Positions 92 to 62,485 of a DNA stretch of 64,000 nucleotides are shown here, piece after piece. Position 1 is the stretch's first letter. Each line of letters starts with the position of its first letter. Location: UHGV virus genome UHGV-0218015; one strand, 5' to 3'. The notes beneath the pieces were generated by a model that saw only the letters and a list, made by a program, of their open reading frames with translations, searched no databases and had not been told where the DNA came from. The position numbers and the translations under genes were made by a program. The stretch is from a virus.

Positions 92-3000
92 CTAAGTACG
101 ATCCCCTAACTGCTTCCCGTTAAGTTCTCGTTTCAGTACAGCCAGAATCCACTTCCACGCTTTACTCGTGATGTGGTACGGGTTGCGTTTCTCCATTAAG
201 AACTGACTTTCGCCGCTACGGAGTTCGAAACTCTGTGCATTGAGTTGATCTTGACGGACACTTTTCTCGTCAGTGACATCTAACGAACAGGTAAAGTTAA
301 GTTCATAACCTTCCGGATTATTGCCGGGCGGTTCTAAGACAATATAAATGTCCTGACCTACACGTAAGTCCTTTGGCGTAAGAGTAATCGCTTTACCTGT
401 ATCAGAGGCGGTCGAAAGCGCAAAAGATACGCTATCAATAGCCGATACATACGGGTCCTTCCCGGCATCACCGATAATCACTTTACCCGGCCAGTTAGAC
501 TTCACCGTCCCGGCCACTTTTGCAACGCGATACTGCTGTTTATCAGCACCTTGTGCAAAGCGTAGAATGAGTTTATGGCGATAACGACTCGCAGCAGCTT
601 TAGTCGTGCTCCACTCATTATTCCAGGAAGCGTTGAGTTCACCTTTCTTGGCCATCAAGGCACCACGAGACAGCTTACGGTCAAAGAACTGCGCAGGCAA
701 CTGACCGTCATGTGAAACAGCAACACTTCCCTGGCCGGTTGGCAGCGCGATGCTTTCTGTAACGCGGTATTTCTGACTAATCTCATAAGTCGCGGGGTCA
801 ATCACAGTCTGACTAAAATCAACGTCTTTGGTATCAGCCAAATACCCAACGGACGAATCCAGATACGATTCGAACAACGAACGTAAGTAATGGTACTTAT
901 CAATGTCGACGTTACTCGTAGCCGGATCAATCAGCGCGTGACTAATCGTTACACGGCATTTCGCAGACAGTTCTTTAAACGACAATCCCACACCGTCGCC
1001 AGTGAAATAATCCACTAAATCGAACGGGAATTGAATCTCCAGCTGTCGATGTTTAACTGTTGTCGTTCCGAACTGTGAGAACGTCAGTGCTAAACGTAAT
1101 ACCCGACTGTTTACGTTGTAACGATAGCGAATCATGCCACGAGGTGCATGGTTTGCAGAAATTTTATCTCGGCTGGCACCCCAACCTATCAAGTCGAGCG
1201 TCGCCGCGTTGGTTTCCTCACCGTTGAACAACACATCCTTAAACGTTGCGGCCACTGCCGTTTCCCCAGACTCCTCCATCACTAACGGAATATCCGTAAC
1301 AGCAGAATCTGAACGGGAACCAATCCCCAACTTACAGGTTTTGGTAGTTAGGTCAATGCGCAGATAGCGACGTTTAACGCTGCTACCTTGCGTTGACGTG
1401 CATAGAACCAAATCCGGCGCAGCAGCAAGGGCTTGCGTTCCACCAACATCGTCAACATCGAACGCAAACGAGCCTTCGAATGTCGGTGCGTTGTTTTCTT
1501 TCGGGTTAAATGGTGTAAACCAACAATACGGCGTAGCACCTTCAGGTATCACAACGTATTGAAGACTCGACTTCACGTTTTGGTTGTGTGCGTAAGTATA
1601 AAGACCACGACTGACAAGATGGAAAACATCCCCTGTAGCGGTTGCTAACGGTTTCCTAAAGATACACGCTCTTGGTTCGGCAATAGCACGGTTTAATAAC
1701 GGCAACCGTGGGTTATCCGTCAGTGACCAGTCCGCAGCGTTGAGACCGTGTGCCTTACGAATACTATTATGCTCGCTAACTTCCGCACTTTTCCCGAAAT
1801 CAAACGTGGTTTCAAATCCCACGGTTTTATTCGCGTAAGACTGACCAGGAACGATATCAACATAACCGATATATCCGCGTTCTGGATCGACCTCAAATCC
1901 TTGAACTGGTTCAGCACGCGAATACAGAGAGCCTGTGAGCATGTTAACGTACAAATAATGACGAATACCTACATGCGTTGTGACAAACTCCTGGAGAAGC
2001 TCTACACGCGTTTCAGGACCACTGAAATAAACGGGGTAGTCACCATCGTAAACTTCGAACTGTACCGCTGCAGATTTAGCCGTGTCACTACACTCTGCTT
2101 TAACAGCAATTGTGTAGTTTTCAACATCTGGAGACGTTCCATAGTTCATTAACAATGGCGACGCACCAGTAGCGCCTACAACACCATTTACATAAACGGT
2201 TATTGTCCCACCGCCAGCGGCATAAACAAACAGCCTTTTCTGACGAGCTTTGACGCGCGTTTTAGCCAGTACCGATACAACGGACTGAACGCCCATCTGG
2301 GTGGCGCTTTTACCTACCGGAACTGACTGAAACCCCATTGTTGGGGGATCAACAATTCCATCCCAACTAATCCCGGTACCTTTACTCACCTTACCCGTAG
2401 GCCAAGTCAGCTCAAGTTGGTTGTTCGGTGAGAACCAGTTAAACATCGGAGTGGTTTGCAGGTCAATCGCACCGGTAACGGTACTGTCACCTTTCGTGCC
2501 GTCCAGCAAATAGAAATATTTCAAATCCTGAACGGAGATTGCCGTACCCTGGCTATTAAATCGCCAGTCTGCGCCTTTTACAGCAGCGAAATCCGTGACT
2601 GTTCCTTCTTTCGCATTTGCAATTGCCGCAGCGACCACACTTAAACGTGCCGAAAGCTCTTTTAGGATGTTCGGTACCACTGCACGGTTTTCAACCAAAC
2701 CGTTCTGGTTAGTTGCATAACGACCAATACCGTAAACAGATTGAGAAGCTTTATAAATACCTAACTCCGACCAATCGTGATGATGGCCCACATCTGCTAG
2801 ACCGCTAACCGCCTCAGTTAACTTGGTTGACAACGGTTTGTCAAGATCTGCGGTATTATCCGCTTGCCCTAACCCCAGGTCAGCTTTCGTGATTGTCCTG
2901 GAGCCGTCATTCATTGGCTTACCGTTAATCATGGTCGTTTTAGCCACATACCCCGATAGGTCGGTCGCATATGGCGCTAACGAAGCCGGAGTTGCTGCAA

Positions 3001-4276
3001 CCCCAACGATTTCTGTACCTTTACCAGTTTTAAGCTTAACAACACCTTTTTCAGTGGTTGTCGCTTTCGTCGGGTCGATAGTACCCACGATAGGATCGGT
3101 CCGAGAGCCTTTACCGGTGAAGCTAATCCCATTACGGCCTTCGATGTACACCTTTGAGTCGTCGGGGTCACCGCCACCGCTCCCGCCAGCATCAGGATCT
3201 TGTTGGTATTCCATCAATGCTGTGGTGGTCAGTAACGGGTTACCGTTTAGGGTGAGTTTGTTCATCCCTAAAGCATCGCCTGTTGACTCGATACGTAGGA
3301 TGTTTTTACCAGCACGCCAGTTAATGTAACGTCCTGCACCCGTTCCTTCCAGATGCCCTACCGATAACACTACAGAACCGTTGGATTTTAACGTAAAGCC
3401 ATCATTCGCAAAAATGATTTCTGACTCACCGTTTTTTGAGCGGAACTGTGCACGGTTTCCTGACACCGTACAGTTAAACACACCCCGTACTTCTGAAGAA
3501 ATCCAGTGGGAGATATACGTGTCAATAACTGACTGTGGTAAACGAAACGCTTTCAGCTCATCCGTCAATGCTTTCAACTTTAACCCGTACGCCATAAAGG
3601 TGTCGGGTGTTTTCAAGTTAACAGGATGTGCGTTAATCTGTGCAGAAGTGGTTTGGTGCGGGTTGGTTTCCGCGATGTGTGCCGGGTAGTTAAATGTCTC
3701 GATTTCTTTACCCAGCGCGGCGACTAACGCTTTAACTTCGGCTAATTTATCTTTAATTAACTGGTTAGCGTCATCGGTTTTCAATTCAACATCGTGGACT
3801 GCCGACGCTAAATATTTTTTGTTTAGCAAATCCGCCCAAGACGTTGCCGCAGGCGTAGCCGGGTATAACGACGGTCTGCCTTCTAATAACAACCAGTCAG
3901 CGCTGACTGGGTTATTCAAATATTTCACCAGCTCATCGAGAATATCAACAAACGGGTCGTAGAACGTACCGCCGAGCATTTGTCCTTCAAAGGTTACGAT
4001 GCCTTTGATGGAAGGGTTGATAAGGTGTACCCCACAATACACGTTGGCTGCTACCGAGTCATCCAGTTCCGTCAGCTGATATTGCAGTTCGTAGTCCACC
4101 CCACGACTCAGTGGGGTGGTTGAACCTGGTTGTCTGACGACTAAATCTTCAAAGAACGGGCGATGGTCTAAAATCACCACCCGATCGTTGTTGTTTTCTG
4201 ACCCGATGATACGCTCCTCTAAGAAGTGATTCTCGGTTTTCGTCCCCCGAGGATCGTAAGGATACGCTTTCATCAA
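92..4276 (-). CDS. large tail fibre-like virion protein (1394 aa)
   Basis: Uninterrupted 1394-aa ORF; N-terminal region shares a module with the adjacent 1440-aa protein (PFF..LVV..G...DY); Gly/Thr/Ser-rich repetitive segments typical of fibres. Track start is TTG; an in-frame ATG follows one codon later, with an AAGGAG-like RBS. Confidence 0.6.
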   Translation of the reverse strand: MMKAYPYDPRGTKTENHFLEERIIGSENNNDRVVILDHRPFFEDLVVRQPGSTTPLSRGVDYELQYQLTELDDSVAANVYCGVHLINPSIKGIVTFEGQMLGGTFYDPFVDILDELVKYLNNPVSADWLLLEGRPSLYPATPAATSWADLLNKKYLASAVHDVELKTDDANQLIKDKLAEVKALVAALGKEIETFNYPAHIAETNPHQTTSAQINAHPVNLKTPDTFMAYGLKLKALTDELKAFRLPQSVIDTYISHWISSEVRGVFNCTVSGNRAQFRSKNGESEIIFANDGFTLKSNGSVVLSVGHLEGTGAGRYINWRAGKNILRIESTGDALGMNKLTLNGNPLLTTTALMEYQQDPDAGGSGGGDPDDSKVYIEGRNGISFTGKGSRTDPIVGTIDPTKATTTEKGVVKLKTGKGTEIVGVAATPASLAPYATDLSGYVAKTTMINGKPMNDGSRTITKADLGLGQADNTADLDKPLSTKLTEAVSGLADVGHHHDWSELGIYKASQSVYGIGRYATNQNGLVENRAVVPNILKELSARLSVVAAAIANAKEGTVTDFAAVKGADWRFNSQGTAISVQDLKYFYLLDGTKGDSTVTGAIDLQTTPMFNWFSPNNQLELTWPTGKVSKGTGISWDGIVDPPTMGFQSVPVGKSATQMGVQSVVSVLAKTRVKARQKRLFVYAAGGGTITVYVNGVVGATGASPLLMNYGTSPDVENYTIAVKAECSDTAKSAAVQFEVYDGDYPVYFSGPETRVELLQEFVTTHVGIRHYLYVNMLTGSLYSRAEPVQGFEVDPERGYIGYVDIVPGQSYANKTVGFETTFDFGKSAEVSEHNSIRKAHGLNAADWSLTDNPRLPLLNRAIAEPRACIFRKPLATATGDVFHLVSRGLYTYAHNQNVKSSLQYVVIPEGATPYCWFTPFNPKENNAPTFEGSFAFDVDDVGGTQALAAAPDLVLCTSTQGSSVKRRYLRIDLTTKTCKLGIGSRSDSAVTDIPLVMEESGETAVAATFKDVLFNGEETNAATLDLIGWGASRDKISANHAPRGMIRYRYNVNSRVLRLALTFSQFGTTTVKHRQLEIQFPFDLVDYFTGDGVGLSFKELSAKCRVTISHALIDPATSNVDIDKYHYLRSLFESYLDSSVGYLADTKDVDFSQTVIDPATYEISQKYRVTESIALPTGQGSVAVSHDGQLPAQFFDRKLSRGALMAKKGELNASWNNEWSTTKAAASRYRHKLILRFAQGADKQQYRVAKVAGTVKSNWPGKVIIGDAGKDPYVSAIDSVSFALSTASDTGKAITLTPKDLRVGQDIYIVLEPPGNNPEGYELNFTCSLDVTDEKSVRQDQLNAQSFELRSGESQFLMEKRNPYHITSKAWKWILAVLKRELNGKQLGDRT

Positions 4277-4286
4277 AAAATTCTCC

Positions 4287-7200
4287 TTAATCGCGAATGA
4301 TTACCGCCTGCACTTTATTGTCGGTGTCGATAAACGACATTACGCGCTCCTTGTTAAGATAAGGAGGTATCGGTAACGCAGCGTAATCTGCCAGGTTGTT
4401 ATTAAATTCAGTTGCCACTAACGCATTAAGCGTTTCGGGGTCTGAGCTGACACCGGACAATTCCATGACGCGTACTCGATTTAATGAGGAATAGTTGCTA
4501 ACATAGTCCAACAACGTACCGTAGACTTTGTTCGCAGTTGCGCTGTCTGCTGTAGAGCGGATGTTGGCACGAACCTCATCCTCATAAAGTCCCCCTAAAC
4601 CGTAGTAAATAGGGGTATACGGATCATTAACGATAGGTTCGATATTGAACCCGGTTAAACGGTCGGCTAATGGGATTTTCTGCGTAGTTCCCCCTGCCGC
4701 CGTACAGCTTACGTATTTATCTGTCGCGGATAAAAACACCACGATAGTATACACAGTGCCAGCTAAAGTCAGCGATGCATTAAACGTTATTGCGTTGTTT
4801 GCACCACGGGTGTGGGTAAACGTTACGTCAGGTCGTAATGAACTCCACGGTGCAGGCGTAACACGCTTCGTTGGTGTGAAACCTACCACTACCGATTTCC
4901 CGCTACCGAAGTTCAAACCGAACCCTGCGTAACAATATTCACCGTTACTGTCAGTTAAACGATAACCGCGAGTGATAAGTAATGACAACCGCATAAACTC
5001 GCCGTCGGTGTTCTTCCAACAACCTAAAACAGTTTCTAACACTGTTCCGGTTTTTGCGTTGCTTTCTGTTTCCCAACTTACCCGCATTCCTGCGTTTTTG
5101 AAAGTCGGGAATAAGTTGTGAATAAACCCGTGAACGTTGTCACTTACCCCTTTCGCATCGAAAATCCACTTTGATGCGATCTGGTCGTATTTCACCCCGT
5201 CTAAGGCTTTATACTGTCCACGAACAACATAACGCCAATCTGCTTCACCACGCACTACTGCCTGGAGTCCAGAAGCCCAGCAAGGTGCACCTACTGTTAA
5301 ATCACTTAACCCCAATACTGCACGCGAAGCAGAACGTTGAATGTGTGCGTTGTCATTAGCGATGTGGTCTTTCAGCTCGTGGAATTCGCCTAATCGTGTC
5401 ACGTTACGCAATTCCACTACGTCCACTTCGGAAAGCTCATTGACAACGAGTCTTCCCACGCGCGTCATGGTATCCGTTTCAGCCTGATTGTAGCTGTCGT
5501 GGATAACATACTTCGCTTTGTTGTCAACAATATCAACAAAAATTCCTGCGTAGATCAACGTTTTCGGATTCGGGAAACGTTCAGTGACGTTAACCGACAT
5601 TAACGGTACGTCATACGTCTCACCACCAACAAAGTACGTTGAAGCGGGGAGCATAGCCAGAATTTTGTCTTTAACCGTAACGTTAATTAAGTCGTCACCA
5701 GACTTGCCGAAACGAATAATGTCAACGCGAGCACCCGAGTCAACGCCACCGACAGCATTTTCCAATTTTTCAATCTGGGAAGTCTGCGCCATTACCACAC
5801 TCCCATCGAGTGCTAAAGTCGCATCATCCACATCCAGACCAAATTTAATCAGACCACGTTTCGCTGTGGTTGCGTTCCCAGTACCAAAAGCGGTAAACGG
5901 GTGTTGGTGAACTTTAGGCGAGTATTTATCTAACTCCGCACGTTGTGCTGTAGAAATCGGTAAATTGACATCGGGTGTATTCGCAACGTTACCTAAACCA
6001 AAGGTAATTTTGTCGATAGTGACCGAGCTGGTAAGTTGCATGTCGTTAATGTACGATTTAACCGCAACTAATTTACCGGTGAACTCCGCATCTAGTTTTT
6101 CAATCAGTGCTGGCGTTGCTGCAAGGTTTTCAGCGGTACCAAACTCATCGGTCAACTGCCAAGCTGCCAGGGCTGTTGTATCTGTCGCGGTAGGGAGAAT
6201 AAAAGTCGCTACGAACGGCGATGCTTTTATCCCGCTACCGGTAAGCTCTACCGTGGTTGTAGATGTACCGTAGAATAATCCCGTACCGCCCGCGGTATTG
6301 CCTGGCAGATACGGAGCCACGGTAGTGGGGTCTAAGAGTTTCTTACCACGCCACTGTAACCCACGATCATCAGGATACAATATAAGTTGGTTAGTACCTG
6401 CTTGAAACGTTACAGGGTTATTCCCCGCATTAACCTCGGTTGAACCTTGTCCAATAAACTTAATGGATTTCGGGTCAACGACAAACTGGGCACCTAAACG
6501 GGTCCCGTCAACGACGTCGGGCGCTTTCTTAATGGTAACCGTGTTACCTTTATTCCCCGAGCTAATAGTGACATTGTCAGCAACATTACTGATCAATGAT
6601 TTAAAGTGGTGGCTATTCTCCAATGCTTCTAGTGCAGCGTCCATGTTAGTGAAGTTAACACGTGCACTGTATGTCTTGCCGTTTATGGTAATAACGACAT
6701 CAAACACGTTCCCTGTGCGTTTCAGTTGAAAACGCAGCGTAAAATCCCCATCCGGTATTGCTGGATTAGGAGCTTGGGAAAGATACTGAACTTCAGGTGT
6801 GGGATTCGAAAAACCGTTCAGTTCCAACTTAACGCCGACTTTACCCGCAGAAATTTCACCTGTAAGCTGGATAAATTTTCCAGAGTTAGTACCAGGTTTC
6901 TGATAGAAACGTAGGCTAACCGTACCGACAGCTTCATTACCAGACGCTGTTTTACGTCCGGTAACAATAAAGTCAATATCTTGCAGGTTAGCAGGTACCG
7001 CATTAAAAGAAGTGGCGAATCCACTCTTCGTTCCTGTGTAACGAAGCGCACCGTGATACCTGTGACCATTACTAACGTAGCTTTCGCTAAAACGAGGACT
7101 CACGTATTTCGACATTGACACCGGGTCAACTTCCGTCGTGAACGAAGTAAAACCGGGCAGCGTTCCAATAGTTCCGTTAGCCGTTTTCGTAGCTGACGTG

Positions 7201-8609
7201 CGCAATAGTTTCTTTTGTGCTGTCAGCGTCGCTTGTGTTGGATACTTAGCATTAACATAATCCGTTAACTGCGGCTTCGTTTTTCCGTAAGCTAATGCTG
7301 CATCCGACGCAATACCGTTCAACTCTAACGCACGGATCGGACCCCACGTATCTGTGTGTGGGTTGTCCTTACGTGTAACGTGTTCGTGCGCAGGCGCATT
7401 ACGATACAGCTGCTCAACCAACTGATGATACTTAACTATTAACTGGTAAACATCGTTATCAACGTCAGGCTCCGGCGCACCGGGTAAAGAACGAATTTGA
7501 ACATTATCGTTTTCAGCCGCATACCAGTTCAGGTTAATGTTCGTTTTAGACTTCAACCATTTGGCTACATCCGTTTTCGAATACCCTGCCGAGAACTCAT
7601 CAGGTGGCGTATCGACGTTGAACGTATAATCCATGGTCTGTTTATTTGTTTTTACTACGATTACGTAAACGCCGTTTCCGGGTTGTCGGGTTACACTAAA
7701 ATCGATATCGTTTTTTAACTCATCGTCAGTTAAACCGTTGATTAAAGTATAATCGTAGTTTGATGAACCGCTTCCAATAGCGACAGTTAAGACCAGTGAG
7801 ATTTTGCGCTGTTTTAGCTGCAACCGTAGAATGCTTGCACCACCGTTGGCATAACAGAGCATCCAATCGATCTGCTCGTTCGGATTCAACTTTGTCATGT
7901 CCGGCAGAATAGCAGGAATTCTGTGTTTCACCGACAGGGAATAGTTGTTAAAGGTTGTCGCTTTATAACTCAGGCTATAACGGTGGCGAGCTGTGTTGTA
8001 GGTGAAACCGCCTTTATTATCGTACGCAGCATACTGCTCGGAAGTGATAACCTTGCTATTAGCACGATATTCCAAATCCAGTGTATTGCGTGCGATTGGG
8101 TTAAGACGACTCACGACTTCCCCTAACGAATCGCCTACCCCAGCAATGGCCTGCATTAGCTCCAGTTCACCTTTCCAATTCTCCCAATCGAACTGGATAT
8201 CGACCGGTGGAAAGTAAACGTCTCCGATGACGGTGTCCCACTGACACGCGGAGGGGTATTTACCTTTATTAAGCTCGCGCTCTGCGGTAATCTGCTCTTG
8301 GGTTGCTTCACCACAACCAACGGCATGGTAATCTACAGTAAAGTTCGATTTGTATTTGTCATTAACAATCCAAATCATCCCGTGAATGAGATAGGCTGTG
8401 CGCAACATACCAGTCTCGTACGGGTGTGTAATAACGTAATCGTCGCCTAAGGTCAGTATTTTGCCGCCGCTCTTGACCACCAGGGATGTGGTGAAAAAAG
8501 GGGCGTGGGCAGGTACCAACATTCGGTATTTCGTACCAATGACGGCGACCGCTTCACCGGTTATTTTATTCCCCGGTTTTTTGAAGTGTGGGTCTAAGAC
8601 GACAGCCAT
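4287..8609 (-). CDS. large tail fibre / tailspike-like virion protein (1440 aa)
   Basis: 1440-aa ORF with ATG start at 8609, 10 nt upstream of the next gene; N-terminal module shared with the 1394-aa protein; long beta-rich, Gly/Thr/Asn-rich sequence. Confidence 0.6.
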   Translation of the reverse strand: MAVVLDPHFKKPGNKITGEAVAVIGTKYRMLVPAHAPFFTTSLVVKSGGKILTLGDDYVITHPYETGMLRTAYLIHGMIWIVNDKYKSNFTVDYHAVGCGEATQEQITAERELNKGKYPSACQWDTVIGDVYFPPVDIQFDWENWKGELELMQAIAGVGDSLGEVVSRLNPIARNTLDLEYRANSKVITSEQYAAYDNKGGFTYNTARHRYSLSYKATTFNNYSLSVKHRIPAILPDMTKLNPNEQIDWMLCYANGGASILRLQLKQRKISLVLTVAIGSGSSNYDYTLINGLTDDELKNDIDFSVTRQPGNGVYVIVVKTNKQTMDYTFNVDTPPDEFSAGYSKTDVAKWLKSKTNINLNWYAAENDNVQIRSLPGAPEPDVDNDVYQLIVKYHQLVEQLYRNAPAHEHVTRKDNPHTDTWGPIRALELNGIASDAALAYGKTKPQLTDYVNAKYPTQATLTAQKKLLRTSATKTANGTIGTLPGFTSFTTEVDPVSMSKYVSPRFSESYVSNGHRYHGALRYTGTKSGFATSFNAVPANLQDIDFIVTGRKTASGNEAVGTVSLRFYQKPGTNSGKFIQLTGEISAGKVGVKLELNGFSNPTPEVQYLSQAPNPAIPDGDFTLRFQLKRTGNVFDVVITINGKTYSARVNFTNMDAALEALENSHHFKSLISNVADNVTISSGNKGNTVTIKKAPDVVDGTRLGAQFVVDPKSIKFIGQGSTEVNAGNNPVTFQAGTNQLILYPDDRGLQWRGKKLLDPTTVAPYLPGNTAGGTGLFYGTSTTTVELTGSGIKASPFVATFILPTATDTTALAAWQLTDEFGTAENLAATPALIEKLDAEFTGKLVAVKSYINDMQLTSSVTIDKITFGLGNVANTPDVNLPISTAQRAELDKYSPKVHQHPFTAFGTGNATTAKRGLIKFGLDVDDATLALDGSVVMAQTSQIEKLENAVGGVDSGARVDIIRFGKSGDDLINVTVKDKILAMLPASTYFVGGETYDVPLMSVNVTERFPNPKTLIYAGIFVDIVDNKAKYVIHDSYNQAETDTMTRVGRLVVNELSEVDVVELRNVTRLGEFHELKDHIANDNAHIQRSASRAVLGLSDLTVGAPCWASGLQAVVRGEADWRYVVRGQYKALDGVKYDQIASKWIFDAKGVSDNVHGFIHNLFPTFKNAGMRVSWETESNAKTGTVLETVLGCWKNTDGEFMRLSLLITRGYRLTDSNGEYCYAGFGLNFGSGKSVVVGFTPTKRVTPAPWSSLRPDVTFTHTRGANNAITFNASLTLAGTVYTIVVFLSATDKYVSCTAAGGTTQKIPLADRLTGFNIEPIVNDPYTPIYYGLGGLYEDEVRANIRSTADSATANKVYGTLLDYVSNYSSLNRVRVMELSGVSSDPETLNALVATEFNNNLADYAALPIPPYLNKERVMSFIDTDNKVQAVIIRD

Positions 8610-47175: not shown

Positions 47176-47235
47176 TTTTTACAGTTGGGAACAGACTTAT
47201 GTCTCCCAAGACTGCGTTTAAGCGGAGAAACAATT

Positions 47236-47700
47236 ATGCGTGGATATATTCTCGATCTTGCAATTTCTGTAGAAGAACTTGTGGAAAAACTCGGCGGTAC
47301 CGGTCATGGGCTTCATGGGAAGACCAAAAGCATAGCTCATCTTCTCGAACCAAAATACGAACGGAAACTCCACATGATTGCTTCCGTTCGCAACAAAGCC
47401 GCTCACAGGAGAATTCTTCCCGAACGCATAGACGTCTATGAACAAGCTGTGGAAGAAACGAGGCTCTATTTAGAAGAACTGGTTAGGGAAGAAGAGCGGA
47501 AACGTCGTTGTGAAGAGGAAATAAATCCCAGCTGTCTGGAACGCGAAGCGATGTGGAGAGAACGGGCAGACGAGGCCAAACGACGTAACGAAGAGAAAAG
47601 ATGGGACGATATGAGTGTAATAGAAAAGATAGGTTGGGGCGCCGGTATTGCAATCGTGGGAGCTGCGGTTGCGTACCTTAAAATAAAGTCTCGTGACTAA
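47236..47700 (+). CDS. HEPN-like (Rx4H) helical protein with C-terminal transmembrane anchor
   Basis: Motif IASVRNKAAHRR (R-x4-H) within a predicted all-helical domain; charged linker; C-terminal hydrophobic IGWGAGIAIVGAAVAYL; ATG at 47236 with GGAG RBS (track ORF begins at 47185). Confidence 0.3.
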   Translation: MRGYILDLAISVEELVEKLGGTGHGLHGKTKSIAHLLEPKYERKLHMIASVRNKAAHRRILPERIDVYEQAVEETRLYLEELVREEERKRRCEEEINPSCLEREAMWRERADEAKRRNEEKRWDDMSVIEKIGWGAGIAIVGAAVAYLKIKSRD

Positions 47701-47714
47701 ATCGGGTATCGGAA

Positions 47715-48260
47715 ATGAAACAAATACAGTTAACTGATCACGTTAATGCGTTTAAACACTTTCTGGATAACGCGGGTATAAAACCCGGCGAACAGACAGA
47801 CGCATGGACTGCACGTGTTTATGGAAGTATTGGCAAAGTCTGTGAATCCACGACATCACACGACGGGTTGTTTGTTGCTAAAGCGGTGGGTAACGCCTTG
47901 TGGGATATTGCTGCTCTAGTTTACGTGATGAATAACGGGGATTTACGTCCCCTTGAAAAATCACTACACCGACTACTAGCCATTAAGAAATGGAAAAACG
48001 AACATCCTGAGTCAATCGCGGTTACGTTGATGCCAGAAGCGGTACTTGCTATCAAAGCGGTACGAAGTTGTACCGCTCGCGCACAAATGGAGCGTCGTCT
48101 ACATCTCGCGACACTCTTTTATCAATTGGCCAGAATTGTAAAGATGAACGGCCTAATCTTCGACCGGGTTCTACAGAACGGACGTATAAGTTGGACAGAA
48201 GAACTAAGTAGTTCTCCGTTCTATACAAAACTAAAACTTAAAGACATTTTGAAGGATTAA
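47715..48260 (+). CDS. hypothetical protein (181 aa)
   Basis: Complete ORF; predicted helical. Confidence 0.5.
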   Translation: MKQIQLTDHVNAFKHFLDNAGIKPGEQTDAWTARVYGSIGKVCESTTSHDGLFVAKAVGNALWDIAALVYVMNNGDLRPLEKSLHRLLAIKKWKNEHPESIAVTLMPEAVLAIKAVRSCTARAQMERRLHLATLFYQLARIVKMNGLIFDRVLQNGRISWTEELSSSPFYTKLKLKDILKD

Positions 48261-48261
48261 C

Positions 48262-48570
48262 ATGGAAAACTATTCGGGTTGGGCAATTTCGCAGTGCATT
48301 GGCTATTCTTTACGTTCTTTAGTGCGTACACTTTATAACAAAAACTCAGGTGAAAGCATTACACCACAGTTACTGGGCAAATTGGAAGTTGAAGTTAACC
48401 ACAAATTAAAACAGTTACTCGACAGCCACGTAAGAACAATGCGTTGGGAGTTCTTGCTACGTGGTAAGAAGCCTTTAATTACTGTTGTAGCAGAAGGCAG
48501 TGAAATCGTACTGCAGTCCAACGCAGACCTGTTTGAAATTTTAACTGAACTCGAAAAGGACAAAATCTGA
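48262..48570 (+). CDS. hypothetical protein (102 aa)
   Basis: Complete ORF; starts 2 nt after the previous stop. Confidence 0.45.
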   Translation: MENYSGWAISQCIGYSLRSLVRTLYNKNSGESITPQLLGKLEVEVNHKLKQLLDSHVRTMRWEFLLRGKKPLITVVAEGSEIVLQSNADLFEILTELEKDKI

Positions 48571-48887
48571 TGACTGTGAACGACAATATAAAGAAAAAGA
48601 TTGACGAAATCATAAGCGTCAGTTTAGATAGGATCGAATTAATTCCCGAAACTAAGGAAATCAAATACTACGTTCCTGCAGACGAACTATTTCCAGGTCT
48701 TCTTAGAATCTCACCAAAAAAGGTTGAAGAGGCTAAACGGCAATTCGAAGTTCGTGGCCTTAAGGTTGAGATTGTTAACAAAAAACATTTCCATGTAACG
48801 TATAGCCAGGAAAACATTATTTTTAGTCCTGAGCAAGCGCAACGTAATTTAGACATTTTAACGAAACGTATGGAGAATAACAAATGA
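48570..48887 (+). CDS. hypothetical protein (105 aa)
   Basis: Complete ORF overlapping its neighbours at both ends. Confidence 0.45.
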
Positions 48888-49918
48888 AACAGTATTTAGC
48901 GTTAATGCAAGACATTCTAGATAACGGTGTTGTCAAGAAAGACCGTACAGGCGTAGGGACACTTTCTGTATTTGGTCGCCAACTACGTTTCGACCTAAAA
49001 GAAGGTTTCCCATTAGTTACTACGAAAAAGGTTCACCTGAAAAGTATCATTCATGAACTGCTGTGGTTCTTAAATGGTGACACTAACGTGAAGTACCTGC
49101 AAGAGAACGGGGTAAAAATTTGGAACGAATGGAGTGACGAGGAGGGGAACTTAGGACCAGTTTATGGTAAACAATGGCGTGAATGGCGCGACTGTAAAGT
49201 TGTGGAGTGTCATGACGTAAGACGTACACAACAACTAATGCAGCGGGGTTACAAGTATATTGGGAATATGAAGGAAGACGGTACGACGTATTTGGTCTAT
49301 GAAAAAGCACATGACCAGATCAGCAAAGTTATCCAGCAACTTCGTGAAGACCCTGACTCCCGTCGTATTATTGTTAGTGCCTGGAATGTAGGTGACCTGG
49401 ACGATATGGCACTTAACCCATGCCACAACTATTTCCAATTCTACACAACGGAAATGACGTTGCTTGAACGACTGGATTGGTACGAAGTAAACGAACCGGA
49501 AAAATTTGCGAGCGCACCGCTTATTAATCACGAAGATATTGATGATGAAGAGCGACTTCATGAAATTTTAGATCGTGAGGACATTCCACGCCGTAAGCTT
49601 TCATGTTTTTACATGATGCGGAGCAACGACGTCGCATTAGGAAAACCGTTCAACATCGCGTCATACGCTCTGTTAACTCATATGGTTGCCCAACAAGTGA
49701 ATATGGTTCCCGATGAGTTAGTTTATAGTGGAGTCGATGTGCATTTATATCTGAACCACCTCGATCAAATAAAACTCCAGCTGACTCGTGAGCCGTACCC
49801 GTTACCTAAATTGGTTATTAAACGTAAACCCGAATCTATCTTCGACTACAAATACGAGGACTTTGAAGTAGTCGGTTACCAATCTCACCCACACATCGCC
49901 ATGCCTGTTGCGGTGTAA
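48884..49918 (+). CDS. thyA: thymidylate synthase (ThyA family) with two insertions
   Basis: Near-collinear with E. coli ThyA as I recall it (MKQYL.LMQ..LD.G..K.DRTG.GTLS.FG...[27 protein letters not shown]; [23 protein letters not shown]; [11 protein letters not shown]; [15 protein letters not shown]), with extra segments of roughly 35 and 45 aa. Confidence 0.95.
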
Positions 49919-55318: not shown

Positions 55319-58300
55319 TTACGCCCGTTTACGACCAACGTCGAGTTGGCGGGCAGGTTGTTCAACCGCGATGTTACGTGATGCTGACCCCGGGGCAGAA
55401 GCCGCCGAACTAGCTGGGGAGGACTGCATAGCCTGTGGTCGCTGACGAAGAATTGTAACAATCTCTCTCAGATAACCCGCAGACTCTTTTGCAACCGCCA
55501 GCTGCTGTACGCTAATCGGATCACCGCTGTTCACCGTTGGCGCAGTCTGTGCATCAGACGTTACCGTTGGCGCAGGACGAGCTGTTTTCTCCATTTGCTG
55601 TCTAGCACCTTCTTTTACTTTGGCAACTTCCTCTTCGCCCAGGCCATCAGCACGCGCATTTTGACCCACCGTTTCAACAACGACAGACGCATCACTTGGC
55701 GTGACGTCACCGCCAGGACTCGGCACAGCTGGACCACCCCCAGTTGCAGCTTTAATATCTTCAGCGCCCATCGCTCCTTTGTCTGCTAAAGCGGAGTCAC
55801 GATTCGCCTCGTTCGCGGCTGGCAGGTTATCTGCCGGACCAGAAATAGACGGATCGTTAGCTGCGCCAGCAGCAATTGCAGGAGACGATGGAACTGGCGA
55901 TAACCCTTTTGTCATGTTTTTCGCAGACGCAGGATTTGCCGCAATCTCGTTAGTTCCAACCGCGCCCATACGGCGGTTCAGTTCCTCGACAACCTCACCG
56001 ATCGTACGCATCCTAACGCGTTTCTTCCCGTTCATGATATAGAAAACACCTTCGTTGCCGTTAAGAACAGCAGGTGTAATATACTTCACTTTGTCGGGCG
56101 ACCCGTTAGGATTGGTTTTCCAGGCTTTAAGGAACTCAGCACCACCACCTGGACCTAAGAAGTGGTATAGGTACGCTACTGCCGGAGGTGGGGCAATTCC
56201 ACCCAGATCCTTTTGTGCGGTCTTGATGTTGTCTCTAATGAAGTTAACACCTAAGATTGCGTTAGCCCACGGGTCGAACTGGTCGGTTTGTGGGATACCG
56301 TATCTTCGGGCGTACTGCTTCATAACCCCGTTCCAAGTACCATTGGTAAATTGGAACAGTCCAGCGGCAGACATCTTATTACTTCTCGGTCTACCAGAGG
56401 ATGCGCCAGGGTAGTTGCCATACTGTAAGCCAGATTCTGCTTGTGCCATTGCAATCGCAACGGATGGCGGAACACCCACCATGTTTGCCGCGTCAATAAT
56501 CAATGACTTAATGGCTTCGGTATTTGACTGCATCGGTTTGCCAAGCATTTCCCTTGGGTATTTAGTCACTAACGATTTGTAATCACCGTCTTGTAACTCA
56601 CCGAGGGTGATACCAGATTGTCCAGTGGAATACTTCGCATAGTTCCCTATACCCATATCGCCAACAACTTGTGATAAGTCACCTGGCGTACCGTAGTACT
56701 GACCACCTTTTGGTAAGTATCCGTCGTTTGAAGCTTCGCCGTAGCTGTTAATTCCCTTATAACGCTCTTTGCTATCTTCATTCGTCTGATGGACACTGGA
56801 GTTTGTCGCTGGTGATTTCCATGTCATACGCTTAGGCGTGCTCGGTGTTTCTTTGAGCATATTCCTTACAGCCAGATCAGGTTCTTTAGACAACTCTTTC
56901 AACGTTGCTAATTCTTCCTTCACCGAACCCGCGTCAGTATTCGCATCGCCTCCTAACGGGTTAAATGCGATTTCCCACACAGACTGACGGATACCCCCTT
57001 TCATGTTGTAAGCACCACGCATCATCAGTGCCAGCTCATAGAGGAAACCCCCCGTGAGTTTCAAATCCAACGGATCGGCATGAGGTACGTAACGTTTTAC
57101 ACCATAAACGTAGGTCATGAATACTGGTAAGAATCGATTATAGAACCAGTTCTTGTAACGCTCCTCTTTTGGACCGCCAATTGCATCAGGCGCAATCGCA
57201 GAAATTGCTTTCTTCCAATCACCCTTATAAATGCAATTTTTGATATCCGTGTCTTTCAACACTTCTTTCTCAAGCAACCTAAAGAGGGTACGTGTTGTCT
57301 CATTAACAGATTTCACACCGTAAGATTTCCAACGGACGGATTCCATCGCGTCCAAATCTTTCTTCTCAGGTAATACTCTCCAGTCAACTTGAATTTGAAC
57401 CTGTTCAGTACCGTCTTCCCAACCCTCAGCTTTAGCAACGGTTTCGTTACGTTCGGTATCGTTCTTCGCGAGTACCTGCGAAGATTCTGCCACAGAAGCA
57501 ACCTTATGTCCTTCAGGCACAGCACCGGCTCTAGTTGTTTTCTTACGCTTATCATCGCGGCGCATGTTGATCGAACGGAAAACACGATCTTGTGCCTCAA
57601 CAACTTCTTCGCCTGACAAAAATTCTGCCGGTGTGAAGGTCACGAAATCCCACGCTTTAGAGAACCAACCTTGGTTAACTTTACGGGGGTCTGTCAGCGA
57701 TTTAAAAGCAGGTGCATCTTTTGTCATCTTCATTTTGTTAAAGATGGTAAGCATGTCTGCTTTTGATACCTTCGACGGATTACCGACGTCAGCTAACGCG
57801 ATATCGTTATCCATTGAACGTAACGCTGTAATCCAACGTAAATAGATCGGCACAAAACGTTGTAGCATAAACGCACTAAACGCCAGCATTTCGCCTTTGT
57901 CTTCTACGTTAGTACCAAACCCTTCGGCCAGTTTCTTCACATCGTCACCGGACAAACCACGCAGCTGCGCTTGACCGTTCTCTGTATAAGAGATATACGG
58001 TTTCAAGTTGTCTTCTAAATAACGTGCTTTTGCACCGTCGTCGGAAGACCATTCATCGTGGTCTCTAAAACCGTACTGTGCCAATCGCATGTTATCCAGA
58101 TACTGGGCATTTACACGATCTTTAGTTTTATAATAAAACCACGTTAACCCTGCGCCAGCGGCTACCAAACCGATAATCGGCCAGCCAACCGCAGTTACCA
58201 CTGCAGATGCAGCTGTCGCGACAGCACTAACCGCAGGGACAGCCAAACGGGTCACGGCAAACTTACCAACGTTCCACAACGCTTTGCCTGCAAATCCAAC

Positions 58301-61300
58301 CGGCTTGAAGATTCCCCATTTTGCAAGTTTACCTAAGATTGAACCCACTGTGCCTAAAATACTCACGATTGGTCCTACCAACGGCAATCCTTTAAGGAAA
58401 TCCATTACCCCACGTTTACCACCTTTCTTCTCAGCCTCTTTCTTAGCCTTTTCCTCTTCCTTAGAACGCCGACGGCGTCGGAAGAACTGGAAGTAATCGC
58501 GTTTTTCATCACTGGCAGGCGGCTTATTGCGTTGGCCGAACTTACTGAACATAGTTCTTAACAAACCTTCCGAAGCACCTGCTTTTTCCGCAGAATCACG
58601 CATGGTGTTAAACCATGACATTTCCTGAAGATTAACCATTCGGTTCAGGCGTTCCAGTAAAGCTGACCCAACGCTACGGGCTTTCTGTTTCCCTTTATTA
58701 ATCACACGTCCAGCGCTATCCGTTACGGTGTCTAAGTCTTCTTTTGCCGCATCGATGATACGTGTTTTAGACACCTTGCCTCTTGCGTAGATGTGCTGAC
58801 GATAAAACTCAGCAACATCGTCATCGCGTCCTGCTAAACGACTCTCCATTCGATAACGTGTGCCGATATCGTAACGTGGGTCTCGGAAAGTATCGACCAT
58901 ATCGCTTGCACGGCCACGGAAACGATCAAACCAACCACGTGCGGCACCGCCCCAACGAGAAAGACGACCACCTACCGCATTGCGATAACGGGACATTCTG
59001 TCACGCATCCGACCGCGCCAATCCCGGAACCCCTGAAAATGTTCACGGAACCCTTCACGTATGTCCTTAGCACGTTGGAATAATCCTTTAACTGAGCTGG
59101 CTCCCGTATTCCGTTCCATCTGTTCTGTCCAGGTATCATCTTCTGGTTCACCTGGCAATCTCCGGTTAAGGAGTTTGTAGATACGGATTAAGATGTGGTT
59201 AGTTTTACGGCCGTTCGACCATGAGAACACACTAAACCCACCACCAGAACCCCCTTCCTTACGGTTCTGCCACCAACGTGTCAGAGGGTTATCAGAAGCC
59301 AACTCTTTGAGCTTCTCAAACCCGCGTTTTGCATTGTTCCACAAACGCGCTGGCATTCCCGTTACACGGGAAATCATGCTTTGTAAACGGGTTTTCTCTG
59401 CGCCCTCTGGAACCTCATTTAGCCACTCGCGTGCTTTCTCGAACAACGAAGCCGCTTTAGGTGAAATGAAGCCCAGAAGTTTCTTCGGTAAAGTCACAGC
59501 TTTGTTTACCGCCGTTCCTGCTTTCCCAGAAATGTACTGGAAAAGCGCTTGAACTTTACCACCTTTGTAGAAGCGCAGTTTACCTGCGGCAGCCAAATCA
59601 GCAGCAGCTAAGATTAAATTACCCGCTTCATCGACAATATCGCGTCCCAGTTTAATATCGTCGAGGGTTTTAAGTTGAATCAGCTTCTCAGTTTTCGGGT
59701 CAGCCTGGTAATATTCCCCAGCTTCTAAACGACTTCCTTGTAATACGACGTTGCCACGTTCATCGTAAATATCACGAACACCTAAAACGCCTTTACCGAA
59801 AGCTACAGCAGAATTCCAACCTGTCGATAGAGTACCTGTTACTAACCCTTTCAGTCGGCTAAATACACCGGGTCCTTCGGAGGGGCCGCCTGAGAATTTC
59901 CCACGGATAAAACCACCTAAAGCCTGCAGACGATCTTTCCCACGTAGGAACAGATTCTTACCAAACCGCCCTACACCTGAACCGGTATCCCAAAGCACCC
60001 CAGCCCAACGGCGTAACAAGCCTGTCTCGCCTAGCACAATACGTTTGCGTTTACGACGACGTTTACGACCCGAGTCACTCGAACTTTCAGATTCGTCACC
60101 GTCATCACGACTACCGCCTAAACTGGCTAGGAGAATACCTTCCTCATCCATGTTCTTAACGTGTTTGAGGATATCTTGCACTGTGCTAGATTCGGGCTGT
60201 TTACGTACAGCATCAATCAAACGGTCGAATTGGTGCTCCAACCCGGCGTTCGTGTCTGGACGACTGCTTAATAGTTCAACAAAGTTAGTGGATTTCTCTC
60301 CATAAAGTACCGCAGCGAGTTGGCGTGCGCTTAAACCGCGACCACGACCTCCTTTTCCACCGCCACGTACATTGGACAGTTCTTTGTCTTCAAAGCTCGG
60401 CTCTGCGCCTGCACCCATCCGACGCAAGTAATCACCCAGCGCAGAACCGTTTTGCAATTTACGCTGAATCTCTTGCTCACGGGTTAACGAACGTCCAGAG
60501 CGGGTCTTACCCATCGACAGGTCATTAAATAACGTATAGGGATCGTTAATGTCCTTATCAACCTCGAAAATGTCATTCTTCGCATCGTATTTAAAAATAC
60601 CGGAATCACGAAGTGCATTCTCGCCGTAAATCACAGACGCAGCATCAACAGTGTCCTGACGTGCGCGAATCGTTGACTGGATAGCGGCGATTTTGTTTGA
60701 AATCGCGTTGCTCAGTTCATGGTGCCCACCAACCAGTTCCGCAGAACGGGCTTCTAAAACACCCTGAATCGCTTCCACAGCGTTTGCGTTCATGTACCGA
60801 TACATGTGCATCGGGTCTTTCAATAAAGACCCTACGTCGAACGCTTTCCCTTCTGAGGCACGAGATTCGATGTAGTCCGCTAATGCTTGACGTGTTTTAT
60901 TATCGAGCGTTTTATCTTTATCGATAAAGTCAACAGTGTCGTTGATGTAAGTCTGTAAACGTTTACGCTGATCGTCATTAGCGACCGCTTTACGAACACG
61001 ATTACCAATAACTTTACGATCCACCATACCGCGTGTGGTCAGGTCATAAACCTGATCGTGGTGTTCCCCATATCCACGACGAATAGATTTGTTAATCTCG
61101 GACAGTAACGTCGGAATAACTTCAGTGATGCTGAGGTAAGCTTTACGATCGAATTTCGCCGCCGCAGAAAGAGATTCCGCAGAGCGATCGTCTAATGCTA
61201 ACGTTTCGCGACGTAGCGGGTTAACCAATCCCAAATCGTGCATTAGGCGAAACAGATCAGCTAACGGGCCGCTTGTTTCTCCTGCTATTGCTGAGTTAGA

Positions 61301-62485
61301 GATGGACGACAAATTTCCAAAACCATACTTCGCCAACTGAAGGCGTTTCATGACTTCTGGATTTTTCTCTAACTCGCCACGAGTCCAGTTTTGTAGACGT
61401 TCGATCTGTGGTTGTAAGAGTCGTTTTGCTAACCAACCACCTGCAAAACCTGCCGCTTTATTACGCGAGTTTGTATTACGACGGTCAGGAGACAACGATG
61501 AGCTGTCCGACATGTCAAAGTCGTCTTCCTGGGCCATCCCTAGAACTTGTTCTAGAATCCCACGACCATCGCTAAAGACGTTCGAGATTTTCTTCTTCGC
61601 GTTCTCACGAATCTGGCTAATGAAATTGTCTGCGTAATGTAAGGGGTTCATCCACTCCGCAGCTTTACGTTTTACATTAGCCCAACGAATTTCAGAAAAC
61701 TCTTCCTTCGCGTAGTCTGGCAGTGCTGTATTCTTAACGATAGCTTCTAATGCCGGTGTATTGCGTGCAAACTCGTCTTGTTTGAGTTTCGCAATATCCT
61801 GCAAAGCAAACAATGTCCGATATTGCAGCTCTAACTGCTTACGCTGAACATTCAACAACACGCCACGACTTAAGCTAGTCGTTAAGTTGACGTCTTTTGC
61901 AATACCGATTACTGTCTGGAACAGTGCGTCGGACTTCATGTCCTTAATCGTGTCACGCAAGCGGTCTTCAACCATCCCTTCTTGCGTTTCGCGTTGTTGG
62001 TCCGCTGTTTGCGGTGCACCTGAGAACACGCTATCCAGCTCACGATCCATCAACGCTTGTTTAGGATCGTAATTCCCGTAGTCGACTTGATCGTTACGTG
62101 CCCACTTGTCGATTTTCCGTGTTACGGATTCCGGTAAATACCGTTTCAGTGTTGGGCCTAACTGTCTCGCTTGCATCTTAACGACGCGAGACGTCTTTTC
62201 AATCTCGTCTTTCGTATGGGCCAGAATGTCTTGACCTGCAGCTTTAACGTTTTGATAGCCTTCGTAGGCTTCTGCCGCAGGTTTAGGCATCCCTTTTAAA
62301 ATAACCTGATCACGTTTGTTTTCGGGCCAGATAGTCGACAACGCCGACTTACGGGCAGCACGAAATGTGTCCATGACCGGGTTACGCGATTGGTCTTGTT
62401 GACGAGGGGGCTCATCAAAATCGTCCCAGTCGTCCATGTTATCAAGATCGATTTCATCGAAATCATCTTTACCTTTTTTAGCCAT
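55319..62485 (-). CDS. giant virion protein (2388 aa) with transmembrane block and lytic transglycosylase domain
   Basis: Acidic N-terminus; hydrophobic helices around aa 1290-1385 (at about nt 58330-58615); SLT family motifs VAIAMAQAESGLQYG...AAGLFQFTNGTW...AYLYHFLGPGG near the C-terminus (at about nt 56000-56400). Size and domain placement resemble phiKZ gp181 as I recall it. Confidence 0.8.
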   Translation of the reverse strand: MAKKGKDDFDEIDLDNMDDWDDFDEPPRQQDQSRNPVMDTFRAARKSALSTIWPENKRDQVILKGMPKPAAEAYEGYQNVKAAGQDILAHTKDEIEKTSRVVKMQARQLGPTLKRYLPESVTRKIDKWARNDQVDYGNYDPKQALMDRELDSVFSGAPQTADQQRETQEGMVEDRLRDTIKDMKSDALFQTVIGIAKDVNLTTSLSRGVLLNVQRKQLELQYRTLFALQDIAKLKQDEFARNTPALEAIVKNTALPDYAKEEFSEIRWANVKRKAAEWMNPLHYADNFISQIRENAKKKISNVFSDGRGILEQVLGMAQEDDFDMSDSSSLSPDRRNTNSRNKAAGFAGGWLAKRLLQPQIERLQNWTRGELEKNPEVMKRLQLAKYGFGNLSSISNSAIAGETSGPLADLFRLMHDLGLVNPLRRETLALDDRSAESLSAAAKFDRKAYLSITEVIPTLLSEINKSIRRGYGEHHDQVYDLTTRGMVDRKVIGNRVRKAVANDDQRKRLQTYINDTVDFIDKDKTLDNKTRQALADYIESRASEGKAFDVGSLLKDPMHMYRYMNANAVEAIQGVLEARSAELVGGHHELSNAISNKIAAIQSTIRARQDTVDAASVIYGENALRDSGIFKYDAKNDIFEVDKDINDPYTLFNDLSMGKTRSGRSLTREQEIQRKLQNGSALGDYLRRMGAGAEPSFEDKELSNVRGGGKGGRGRGLSARQLAAVLYGEKSTNFVELLSSRPDTNAGLEHQFDRLIDAVRKQPESSTVQDILKHVKNMDEEGILLASLGGSRDDGDESESSSDSGRKRRRKRKRIVLGETGLLRRWAGVLWDTGSGVGRFGKNLFLRGKDRLQALGGFIRGKFSGGPSEGPGVFSRLKGLVTGTLSTGWNSAVAFGKGVLGVRDIYDERGNVVLQGSRLEAGEYYQADPKTEKLIQLKTLDDIKLGRDIVDEAGNLILAAADLAAAGKLRFYKGGKVQALFQYISGKAGTAVNKAVTLPKKLLGFISPKAASLFEKAREWLNEVPEGAEKTRLQSMISRVTGMPARLWNNAKRGFEKLKELASDNPLTRWWQNRKEGGSGGGFSVFSWSNGRKTNHILIRIYKLLNRRLPGEPEDDTWTEQMERNTGASSVKGLFQRAKDIREGFREHFQGFRDWRGRMRDRMSRYRNAVGGRLSRWGGAARGWFDRFRGRASDMVDTFRDPRYDIGTRYRMESRLAGRDDDVAEFYRQHIYARGKVSKTRIIDAAKEDLDTVTDSAGRVINKGKQKARSVGSALLERLNRMVNLQEMSWFNTMRDSAEKAGASEGLLRTMFSKFGQRNKPPASDEKRDYFQFFRRRRRSKEEEKAKKEAEKKGGKRGVMDFLKGLPLVGPIVSILGTVGSILGKLAKWGIFKPVGFAGKALWNVGKFAVTRLAVPAVSAVATAASAVVTAVGWPIIGLVAAGAGLTWFYYKTKDRVNAQYLDNMRLAQYGFRDHDEWSSDDGAKARYLEDNLKPYISYTENGQAQLRGLSGDDVKKLAEGFGTNVEDKGEMLAFSAFMLQRFVPIYLRWITALRSMDNDIALADVGNPSKVSKADMLTIFNKMKMTKDAPAFKSLTDPRKVNQGWFSKAWDFVTFTPAEFLSGEEVVEAQDRVFRSINMRRDDKRKKTTRAGAVPEGHKVASVAESSQVLAKNDTERNETVAKAEGWEDGTEQVQIQVDWRVLPEKKDLDAMESVRWKSYGVKSVNETTRTLFRLLEKEVLKDTDIKNCIYKGDWKKAISAIAPDAIGGPKEERYKNWFYNRFLPVFMTYVYGVKRYVPHADPLDLKLTGGFLYELALMMRGAYNMKGGIRQSVWEIAFNPLGGDANTDAGSVKEELATLKELSKEPDLAVRNMLKETPSTPKRMTWKSPATNSSVHQTNEDSKERYKGINSYGEASNDGYLPKGGQYYGTPGDLSQVVGDMGIGNYAKYSTGQSGITLGELQDGDYKSLVTKYPREMLGKPMQSNTEAIKSLIIDAANMVGVPPSVAIAMAQAESGLQYGNYPGASSGRPRSNKMSAAGLFQFTNGTWNGVMKQYARRYGIPQTDQFDPWANAILGVNFIRDNIKTAQKDLGGIAPPPAVAYLYHFLGPGGGAEFLKAWKTNPNGSPDKVKYITPAVLNGNEGVFYIMNGKKRVRMRTIGEVVEELNRRMGAVGTNEIAANPASAKNMTKGLSPVPSSPAIAAGAANDPSISGPADNLPAANEANRDSALADKGAMGAEDIKAATGGGPAVPSPGGDVTPSDASVVVETVGQNARADGLGEEEVAKVKEGARQQMEKTARPAPTVTSDAQTAPTVNSGDPISVQQLAVAKESAGYLREIVTILRQRPQAMQSSPASSAASAPGSASRNIAVEQPARQLDVGRKRA

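Follow-up and report, generated by a model that had tools for sequence, protein, structure and literature searches.

The gene at 47236 to 47700 of the window, the whole 64,000-nucleotide stretch of UHGV virus genome UHGV-0218015 analysed here, encodes a protein that is most aptly described as a compact HEPN-superfamily member with a tail anchor, nearest to DUF4145 and representing a large uncharacterised family. HEPN ribonucleases (RNases) are central effectors in CRISPR, toxin-antitoxin and abortive-infection systems; to our knowledge, those studied are nearly all soluble and encoded by a host or a prophage. The predicted fold is assigned with confidence to the HEPN type on the basis of structural models. 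As to function, we regard it as probable that the product is a metal-independent HEPN RNase tail-anchored in the membrane and serving in conflict between mobile elements. A first-pass annotation, made from the letters alone, had described a product of 154 amino acids with an HEPN-like helical domain containing R-x4-H, a highly charged linker and a C-terminal hydrophobic anchor. The product sequence was confirmed as quoted there, and its parts were located as follows.

47236..47700, + strand: complete gene of the tail-anchored mini-HEPN protein, 154 codons plus stop (list of open reading frames (ORFs), sequence, homologues and the ratio of nonsynonymous to synonymous substitution rates, dN/dS).
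47236..47490, + strand: compact HEPN-like N-terminal domain, residues 1-85, with predicted helices at 2-18, 25-32, 39-58 and 65-84.
47272..47274, + strand: codon of E13, an invariant acidic residue N-terminal to the motif (101 of 101 in the alignment of distant relatives).
47293..47331, + strand: family-specific glycine-rich loop, G20-G-T-G23-H-G25-L-H27-G-K29-T-K-S32 (counts in 101 relatives).
47389..47406, + strand: Rx4H motif, R52-N53-K54-A55-A56-H57, at the C-terminal end of helix 3 (invariance and position in the model).
47491..47619, + strand: charged, probably helical linker, residues 86-128, varying in length and sequence among relatives.
47629..47685, + strand: hydrophobic C-terminal helix, the predicted membrane anchor, residues 132-150, followed by KSRD (hydropathy and conservation).

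The motif is present as R52-x4-H57 within residues 48-59 (IASVRNKAAHRR). Taken alone, Rx4H is no evidence for a HEPN domain, since composition-matched shuffles of this arginine- and histidine-rich protein contain it in 45% of cases (Rx4-6H in 83%). The single short motif on which the first-pass annotation had relied is thus uninformative, and the assignment is carried instead by the fold, the matches to DUF4145 and the invariance of the motif residues. Unlike the bare motif, the conservation of R52, N53 and H57 exceeds chance: they are invariant in each of the 19 phage homologues and of the 101 distant relatives. In the AlphaFold2 model calculated from the alignment of 19 sequences, residues 1-90 reach a predicted local distance difference test (pLDDT) score of approximately 85-92, and the linker and anchor are modelled as helix with low confidence. 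The domain alone (residues 1-85) was predicted with a pLDDT of 94.9 and a predicted template modelling (pTM) score of 0.85. It forms a four-helix up-and-down bundle of the HEPN type, in which RNKAAH closes the helix at 39-58 and is followed by a loop (59-64) and the helix at 65-84. This agrees with the placement of the motif in HEPN proteins where helix-3 ends and the loop leading to helix-4 starts (PMC3710099). A polar residue (N, D or H) directly after the motif arginine is a further HEPN feature (PMC3710099), matched here by N53 directly after R52.

HEPN proteins rank among the matches in two fold searches. The structural relatives include AF0298 (2hsb), TTHA0636 (1wwp), HepT/SO_3166 (5yep) and a HEPN toxin (7ae2), at identities of 8-17%. 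Further structural matches are YutE, TT1696, the HEPN domain of sacsin, HepN and HEPN toxins, and DrrA, as well as MtlR, Roquin, HI0074, ST0689, Csm6 and HepS. A Foldseek search against viral predicted structures returned only weak matches without names. The proposed HEPN-like helical domain is supported by structure prediction and fold searches, with the motif at the end of helix 3.

Among curated families, the sole Pfam match of the protein is DUF4145 (PF13643), with an E value of 0.039 and 14.5 bits, below the gathering score of 23.1. The same family was matched by 8 of the 19 phage homologues (E<1) and by 17 of the 101 distant relatives (E<0.01); the best value, 5.5e-7, corresponds by extrapolation to approximately 30 bits and would pass the gathering score. 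Ten relatives were checked singly, and five of them gave 14-18 bits in the same register (profile positions 21-22 to 72-83). Abi_2, HEPN_Apea, HEPN_RiboL-PSP and HEPN_Swt1 were matched more weakly and likewise indicate the HEPN superfamily. RAZR (PMC13017515) is the one characterised RNase of DUF4145, itself a recognised branch of HEPN proteins (PMC3710099); judged by these sequence matches, DUF4145 is the nearest Pfam family of the protein rather than its demonstrated home. The protein had no match in PHROGs or NCBIfam and none in PADLOC-DB 2.0 at E<=10. The 101 relatives gave scattered weak PADLOC matches only (E>=1.6e-4), mostly to HEPN-containing models. Sequence searches of the PDB with close and broad profiles returned nothing significant. 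The best broad-profile match was HepS (E=1), aligned precisely over the R-N-K-x-x-H segment of HepS, and a PDB match to a designed repeat protein was rejected, as only 'ISVEEL' was in common.

A helical protein unrelated to HEPN, with Rx4H by coincidence, would also be compatible with the frequency of the motif in shuffles, with curated-family matches that all lie below threshold and with the promiscuity of helical bundles in fold searches. Such a chance resemblance is nevertheless very unlikely, as several lines agree: the rank that HEPN proteins take in two fold searches, the place of the motif within the fold, the recurrence of DUF4145 in one register, and the invariance of the glutamate, arginine, asparagine and histidine in a family of more than 300 clusters.

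These clusters were obtained with a profile of the phage domain, which was searched against 1.84 billion representative proteins and matched 337 (each a cluster at 50% identity) at E<=1e-3, nine of them at E<=1e-10. With hhalign, the phage profile was aligned to one built from seven bacterial relatives at 99.65% probability (E 4e-25, 81 columns). In 101 full-length relatives with no more than 17-35% identity to the window protein, E13, R52, N53 and H57 do not vary, an argument that the active site has been kept. Conserved in at least 95% of these relatives are L16, G20, G23, G25, S32 and A49. The family signature reads E-x2-L-x3-G-A-x-G-[RK]-G-L-H-E-K-x2-S ... A-[TS]-[VI]-R-N-K-x2-H-E. The glycine-rich loop within it (consensus G-A-x-G-[RK]-G-L-H-E-K-x2-S; G20 in 97, G23 in 100, G25 in 98, H27 in 90, K29 in 87 and S32 in 95 of the 101) is about as conserved as RNxxxH, and could serve in phosphate binding or supply a second catalytic histidine. 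Members were found in Planctomycetota, which are richly represented, in Acinetobacter and in other Pseudomonadota, and some carry or adjoin zinc ribbons. Two distant relatives were used as tblastn queries against 50,697 deposited phage genomes and gave no match.

Gene contexts of the distant relatives were taken from narrower alignments and sample only part of the family; no recurrent neighbour gene was seen across them. The relative from Acinetobacter parvus (L019, 4989-5666) has 225 amino acids and consists of the domain, one membrane helix and an extracytoplasmic cysteine-rich tail (...CDGRTHC...DGNNDGEPCE...), which we take to resemble an Excalibur-type calcium-binding domain. Its neighbours are housekeeping genes (a nuoN-like gene, upp, a cold-shock-like gene and a LysR regulator). 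This setting and the tail suggest signalling, and would fit a non-catalytic binder or sensor whose ligand at the membrane is RNA, a nucleotide or a protein, bound for example via the G-x-x-G-x-G-L-H-x-K loop. The strong conservation of this loop, which is not described in HEPN proteins, points in the same direction, as does the presence of MtlR, the sacsin HEPN domain and nucleotidyltransferase substrate-binding domains, all non-nuclease HEPN folds (PMC3710099), among the structural matches. Non-catalytic HEPN families, however, typically lose Rx4-6H wholly or partly (PMC3710099), whereas here the motif, the polar asparagine and the acidic residue are all invariant, so that a purely binding or sensing function is rather unlikely.

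The second part of the description, the membrane anchor, is predicted from hydropathy. In windows of 19 residues the maximum falls on residues 132-150 (IGWGAGIAIVGAAVAYLKI), with a Kyte-Doolittle mean of 1.66 and only KSRD following; the top five windows all lie inside 126-150, and this is the sole hydrophobic stretch of the protein. The product is thus predicted to be tail-anchored, with a single helix near the C-terminus and neither an N-terminal signal nor an N-terminal membrane helix. Within the phage family the anchor is conserved, with G137, I138, A139, I140, A144 and I150 invariant. Both the C-terminal anchor and the charged linker of the first-pass annotation hold: 26 of the 43 linker residues (86-128) are charged (12 K/R and 14 D/E). 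AlphaFold2 places the linker in one continuous helix from 65 to 119 (pLDDT approximately 55-59). The arrangement in the wider family was counted in the 147 best representatives of the 337.

Domain first, followed by one or more membrane helices: 104 of 147.
Single helix at the very C-terminus, like the window protein: 51 of 147 (a subset of the 104).
Membrane helix N-terminal to the domain: 3 of 147.
Two tandem domains per chain: 8 of 147.

The tandem-domain chains fit the expectation if two HEPN domains pair into a composite site. Two or more membrane helices were present in 30 of the 147 representatives. These membrane arrangements also bear on the main rival explanation, a membrane effector like Csx28, in which the HEPN-like domain would oligomerise or gate and act through a pore or membrane disturbance instead of RNA cutting; depolarisation, lysis timing or exclusion of incoming phage DNA would be its possible effects. 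Small-xxx-small patterns are often seen in self-associating membrane helices, and the anchor of the window protein is rich in glycine and alanine with this spacing (IGWGAGIAIVGAAVA). The relatives with several membrane helices and Csx28 itself, in which one membrane helix is paired with a HEPN-like bundle whose motif is non-catalytic, likewise speak for such an effector. The 'HEPN' residues of Csx28 sit in the face-to-back interface of its octameric pore and do not serve in catalysis (bioRxiv 10.1101/2021.11.02.466367). Against this alternative, which we consider unlikely, stands the fact that none of the four candidate catalytic residues varies.

The start of the gene was assigned to the ATG at 47236, because all homologues open with MR[GTE][YH]IL; the ORF runs on the + strand to the TAA ending at 47700. 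An alternative TTG start at 47185, which would add 17 residues, was rejected, since the homologues all begin at the ATG. A possible ribosome-binding sequence lies upstream of it.

47222..47225, + strand: GGAG, a Shine-Dalgarno-like sequence 8 nucleotides 5' of the ATG (direct sequence reading, ...agcGGAGaaacaattATG).

Homologues of the full 154-residue protein were found in 57 cases, all on jumbo-phage contigs of approximately 220-226 kb or their fragments, from Salmonella, Shigella and E. coli assemblies and from metagenomes; IMG/VR holds four contigs of this kind. Near-identical circular elements are listed as 'plasmids' of E. coli 98232 (221,873 bp), where the homologue is annotated as 'hypothetical protein', and of Enterobacter ludwigii (222,441 bp). 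These two 222-kb records (NZ_CP173450.1 (L004) and NZ_CP134650.1) contain regions of approximately 89% identity over the 5-kb query. Neither the DNA of the region (megablast) nor the protein (tblastn) had a match in the 50,697 deposited phage genomes. The product of a neighbouring gene is 58-59% identical to its counterparts in Salmonella phage SPN3US and in kindred jumbo phages of Erwinia, Salmonella and Escherichia, and the surrounding gene order is the same as in SPN3US. Seoulvirus is placed in the Chimalliviridae, the jumbo phages that form a nucleus. A proposed genus of this family, 'Bapsvirus', with genomes of approximately 220-226 kb inside enterobacterial assemblies, shows synteny to Seoulvirus at weak similarity, and carrier-like persistence in bacterial colonies has been suggested for it (PMC12768965); the lineage was recently recognised within assemblies of Salmonella, E. 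coli and Shigella that number in the hundreds. Judged by these shared properties, the window fits a 'Bapsvirus'-type phage.

The gene occupies a slot between the counterparts of SPN3US gp040 and gp038. SPN3US holds a gene of 140 amino acids (gp039) in this variable slot; as gp039 is unrelated in sequence, a transfer of function by synteny was rejected. The window gene retains its place there in relatives as diverged as a 136-residue form (47-58% identical). In the phage family, the N-terminal 85 residues are strongly conserved and the hydrophobic C-terminal helix is kept, and insertions and deletions in the linker give versions of 136, 154, 175, 180, 182, 186 and 191 amino acids. The linker ranges from approximately 20 non-helical residues to approximately 80 mostly helical ones, and this wide variation in length and structure marks it as a tether and not as a functional element. 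The dN/dS of the domain was 0.08-0.40 in 20 of 21 locus pairs, so that the gene is under purifying selection; the value for the last 27 codons against L002 was not used, the ungapped comparison being out of register and unreliable.

The flanking genes are conserved and of Seoulvirus type, and the scan of them revealed neither a nucleotidyltransferase match nor another informative domain. The gene is hence regarded as stand-alone. The same neighbours flank the homologues at related loci, and no dedicated partner gene was found among them. A search of all six frames of the window with the family profile for a paralogue matched only the ORF at 47236-47700. CRISPR genes were absent among the neighbouring genes scanned.

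No lysis genes flank the gene in the window, which bears on a role as a lysis-cassette component, i.e. a holin, an antiholin or a spanin-like membrane protein with a coiled coil. The small size of this phage protein, its one membrane helix and its charged helical segment would suit such a component, and one relative, located in a 5.9-Mb chromosome at a prophage moron position, has a DUF2514 (spanin-like) gene within a few kilobases of it. In i-spanins, however, the membrane helix is N-terminal, so that the topology is the opposite of that found here. The conserved part of the protein, moreover, is a globular domain with the HEPN signature, and a coiled coil is not required, because the linker of the 136-residue variants shrinks to a short stretch rich in proline, glutamine, serine and lysine. 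A function in lysis is accordingly the least probable of the explanations considered and extremely unlikely.

Several side observations were made in the same stretch. SPN3US gp038 (289 amino acids, phrog_10269) is split here into ORFs of 181 (47715-48260) and 102 amino acids (48262-48570), both on the + strand, with TAA-C-ATG at the junction. The identical split is present in three diverged relatives (L002, L003 and L004), which indicates a conserved gene fission or recoding site and not a sequencing error. The thymidylate synthase (48884-49918, + strand) has 344 amino acids against 266 positions of the Pfam profile, with approximately 80 residues inserted; that of SPN3US is likewise long (338 amino acids). 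Very large virion genes are located at 92-8609 and 55319-62485, both on the - strand. Two structural proteins encoded side by side (1394 and 1440 amino acids) are paralogues with PHROG families in common, and in a protein of 2388 amino acids a tail-fibre family occurs together with a transglycosylase region. The 64 kb yielded no tRNA genes.

Other relatives are located on mobile elements. The closest one outside the jumbo phages (P0058; L032 3091-3592, DAJLSO010000139.1), approximately 54% identical in the domain, contains two tandem HEPN-like domains and runs off the end of its contig. This 3.6-kb contig also carries a Rop gene, which suggests a small plasmid of the ColE1 type. On an IMG/VR contig (L017, 424-1315), a tail-anchored member of 137 amino acids is directly followed by a small lipoprotein gene (lipobox LLAGC). 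By eye, this pair lies beside lambda-type tail-assembly and host-specificity-like genes, a typical moron position. Lipoproteins at such positions are often superinfection-exclusion factors. Two tandem family members were found on a planctomycete contig (L026, 4857-5624 and 5651-6529).

In the explanation we favour, the protein would be inserted into the inner membrane by its tail, with the 85-residue domain on the cytoplasmic side and with E13 and R52-N53-x3-H57 as the putative HEPN catalytic set. Anchor and linker may bring the domains together in a dimer or higher oligomer, and RNA would be cleaved at the cytoplasmic face of the membrane without a metal, an activity that is established for HEPN nucleases (PMC3710099). 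Its role would lie in conflict between mobile elements, in which rival phages might be excluded or crippled, or in restraint of the host during carrier-like persistence. Such a role in competition or host control is suggested by the accessory slot, the relatives on a plasmid and at moron positions, the precedent of HepS (PMC13043305) and the carrier-like lifestyle.

One HEPN feature agrees only in part. HEPN families commonly conserve an acidic residue upstream of the motif and near the active site, often as Ex3[KR] in helix 2 (PMC3710099). E13 is invariant in 101 of 101 relatives, but it is situated in the first predicted helix, and Ex3[KR] is not kept, as positions 17 and 18 vary. The least secure element of the explanation is the role in biology, and the chromosomal relatives among housekeeping genes indicate that the family is not limited to roles in conflict.

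A more specific and quite speculative extension, which we consider improbable, is that a nucleus-forming phage uses the membrane tether to deploy a non-specific RNase safely: RNAs would be destroyed at the cell periphery, whereas its own mRNAs, made in a phage nucleus at a distance from the membrane and exported from there, would be spared. The targets would then be transcripts of newly injected competitors, including those of early membrane-bound chimallivirus compartments, or host mRNAs translated at the membrane. If true, such a phage-borne device for exclusion or host control could help to stabilise the carrier-like persistence of 'Bapsvirus' in colonies, and across bacteria and mobile elements the wider family might act as a general 'membrane-patrolling RNase'.

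The analysis provides a well-supported HEPN-like assignment for a jumbo-phage gene previously annotated as 'hypothetical'. The layout of its family is constant (a membrane anchor follows a mini-HEPN domain that bears the invariant E...RNxxxH and the conserved glycine-rich loop), and the family lies below the Pfam threshold of DUF4145, is absent from PADLOC and is without a studied member. With 154 amino acids, four candidate catalytic residues and one anchor, the protein offers a simple experimental handle, by which the use of a membrane-tethered RNase to a nucleus-forming phage and location as a control on HEPN toxicity can be addressed.

Compared with known systems, the protein differs from RAZR (PD-T7-4), the DUF4145 protein, which contains an N-terminal zinc finger and an R146/H154 spacing and is devoid of a membrane helix. 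RAZR is a bacterial defence protein activated by assembly around phage ring structures. The PADLOC model of PD-T7-4 was matched only weakly and in only 2 of the 101 relatives, and the glycine-rich loop is not a described feature of HEPN or DUF4145 proteins. MNT-HEPN toxins are encoded next to a nucleotidyltransferase antitoxin, which the window gene does not have, and their HEPN domain comprises 120-135 residues in contrast to approximately 85 plus a predicted membrane anchor. HepS, a single-protein HEPN nuclease for abortive infection from the Gifsy-1 prophage, is a soluble tetramer of 212 amino acids without a membrane helix (PMC13043305) and is activated by siphovirus tail-tip proteins. At E=1, the sequence match to HepS does not establish common family membership.

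Csx28, likewise a small membrane protein, combines a single membrane helix with a HEPN-like four-helix bundle and an Rx4-6H-like motif. It differs in its N-terminal membrane helix, octameric pore, non-catalytic motif and dependence on Cas13b, whereas the window protein has a C-terminal helix and no CRISPR context, and Csx28 is not listed among its structural matches. In its working principle, the proposed protein would be analogous to Ire1, a membrane-tethered HEPN-type RNase that cuts RNAs at the membrane surface (PMC3710099). The KEN domains of Ire1 and RNase L are eukaryotic, coupled to a kinase and of a circularly permuted HEPN fold, and no specific relationship to them was detected.

Anantharaman et al. 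(2013) predicted membrane-associated HEPN proteins to be cytoplasmic and proposed RNA processing at the inner membrane for them (PMC3710099). One of these membrane-associated groups overlaps DUF4145, and a group with an N-terminal HEPN domain, two membrane helices and a Zn ribbon, exemplified in Planctomyces (PMC3710099), probably overlaps the family of the window protein, the two being compared by description only. The groups of that study are computational, and the form with a single C-terminal tail anchor, its abundance and its presence in jumbo phages are not described there. Fold and motif of the window protein are familiar, unlike the membrane-tethered layout, its breadth and its occurrence in a jumbo phage that forms a nucleus and persists in colonies.
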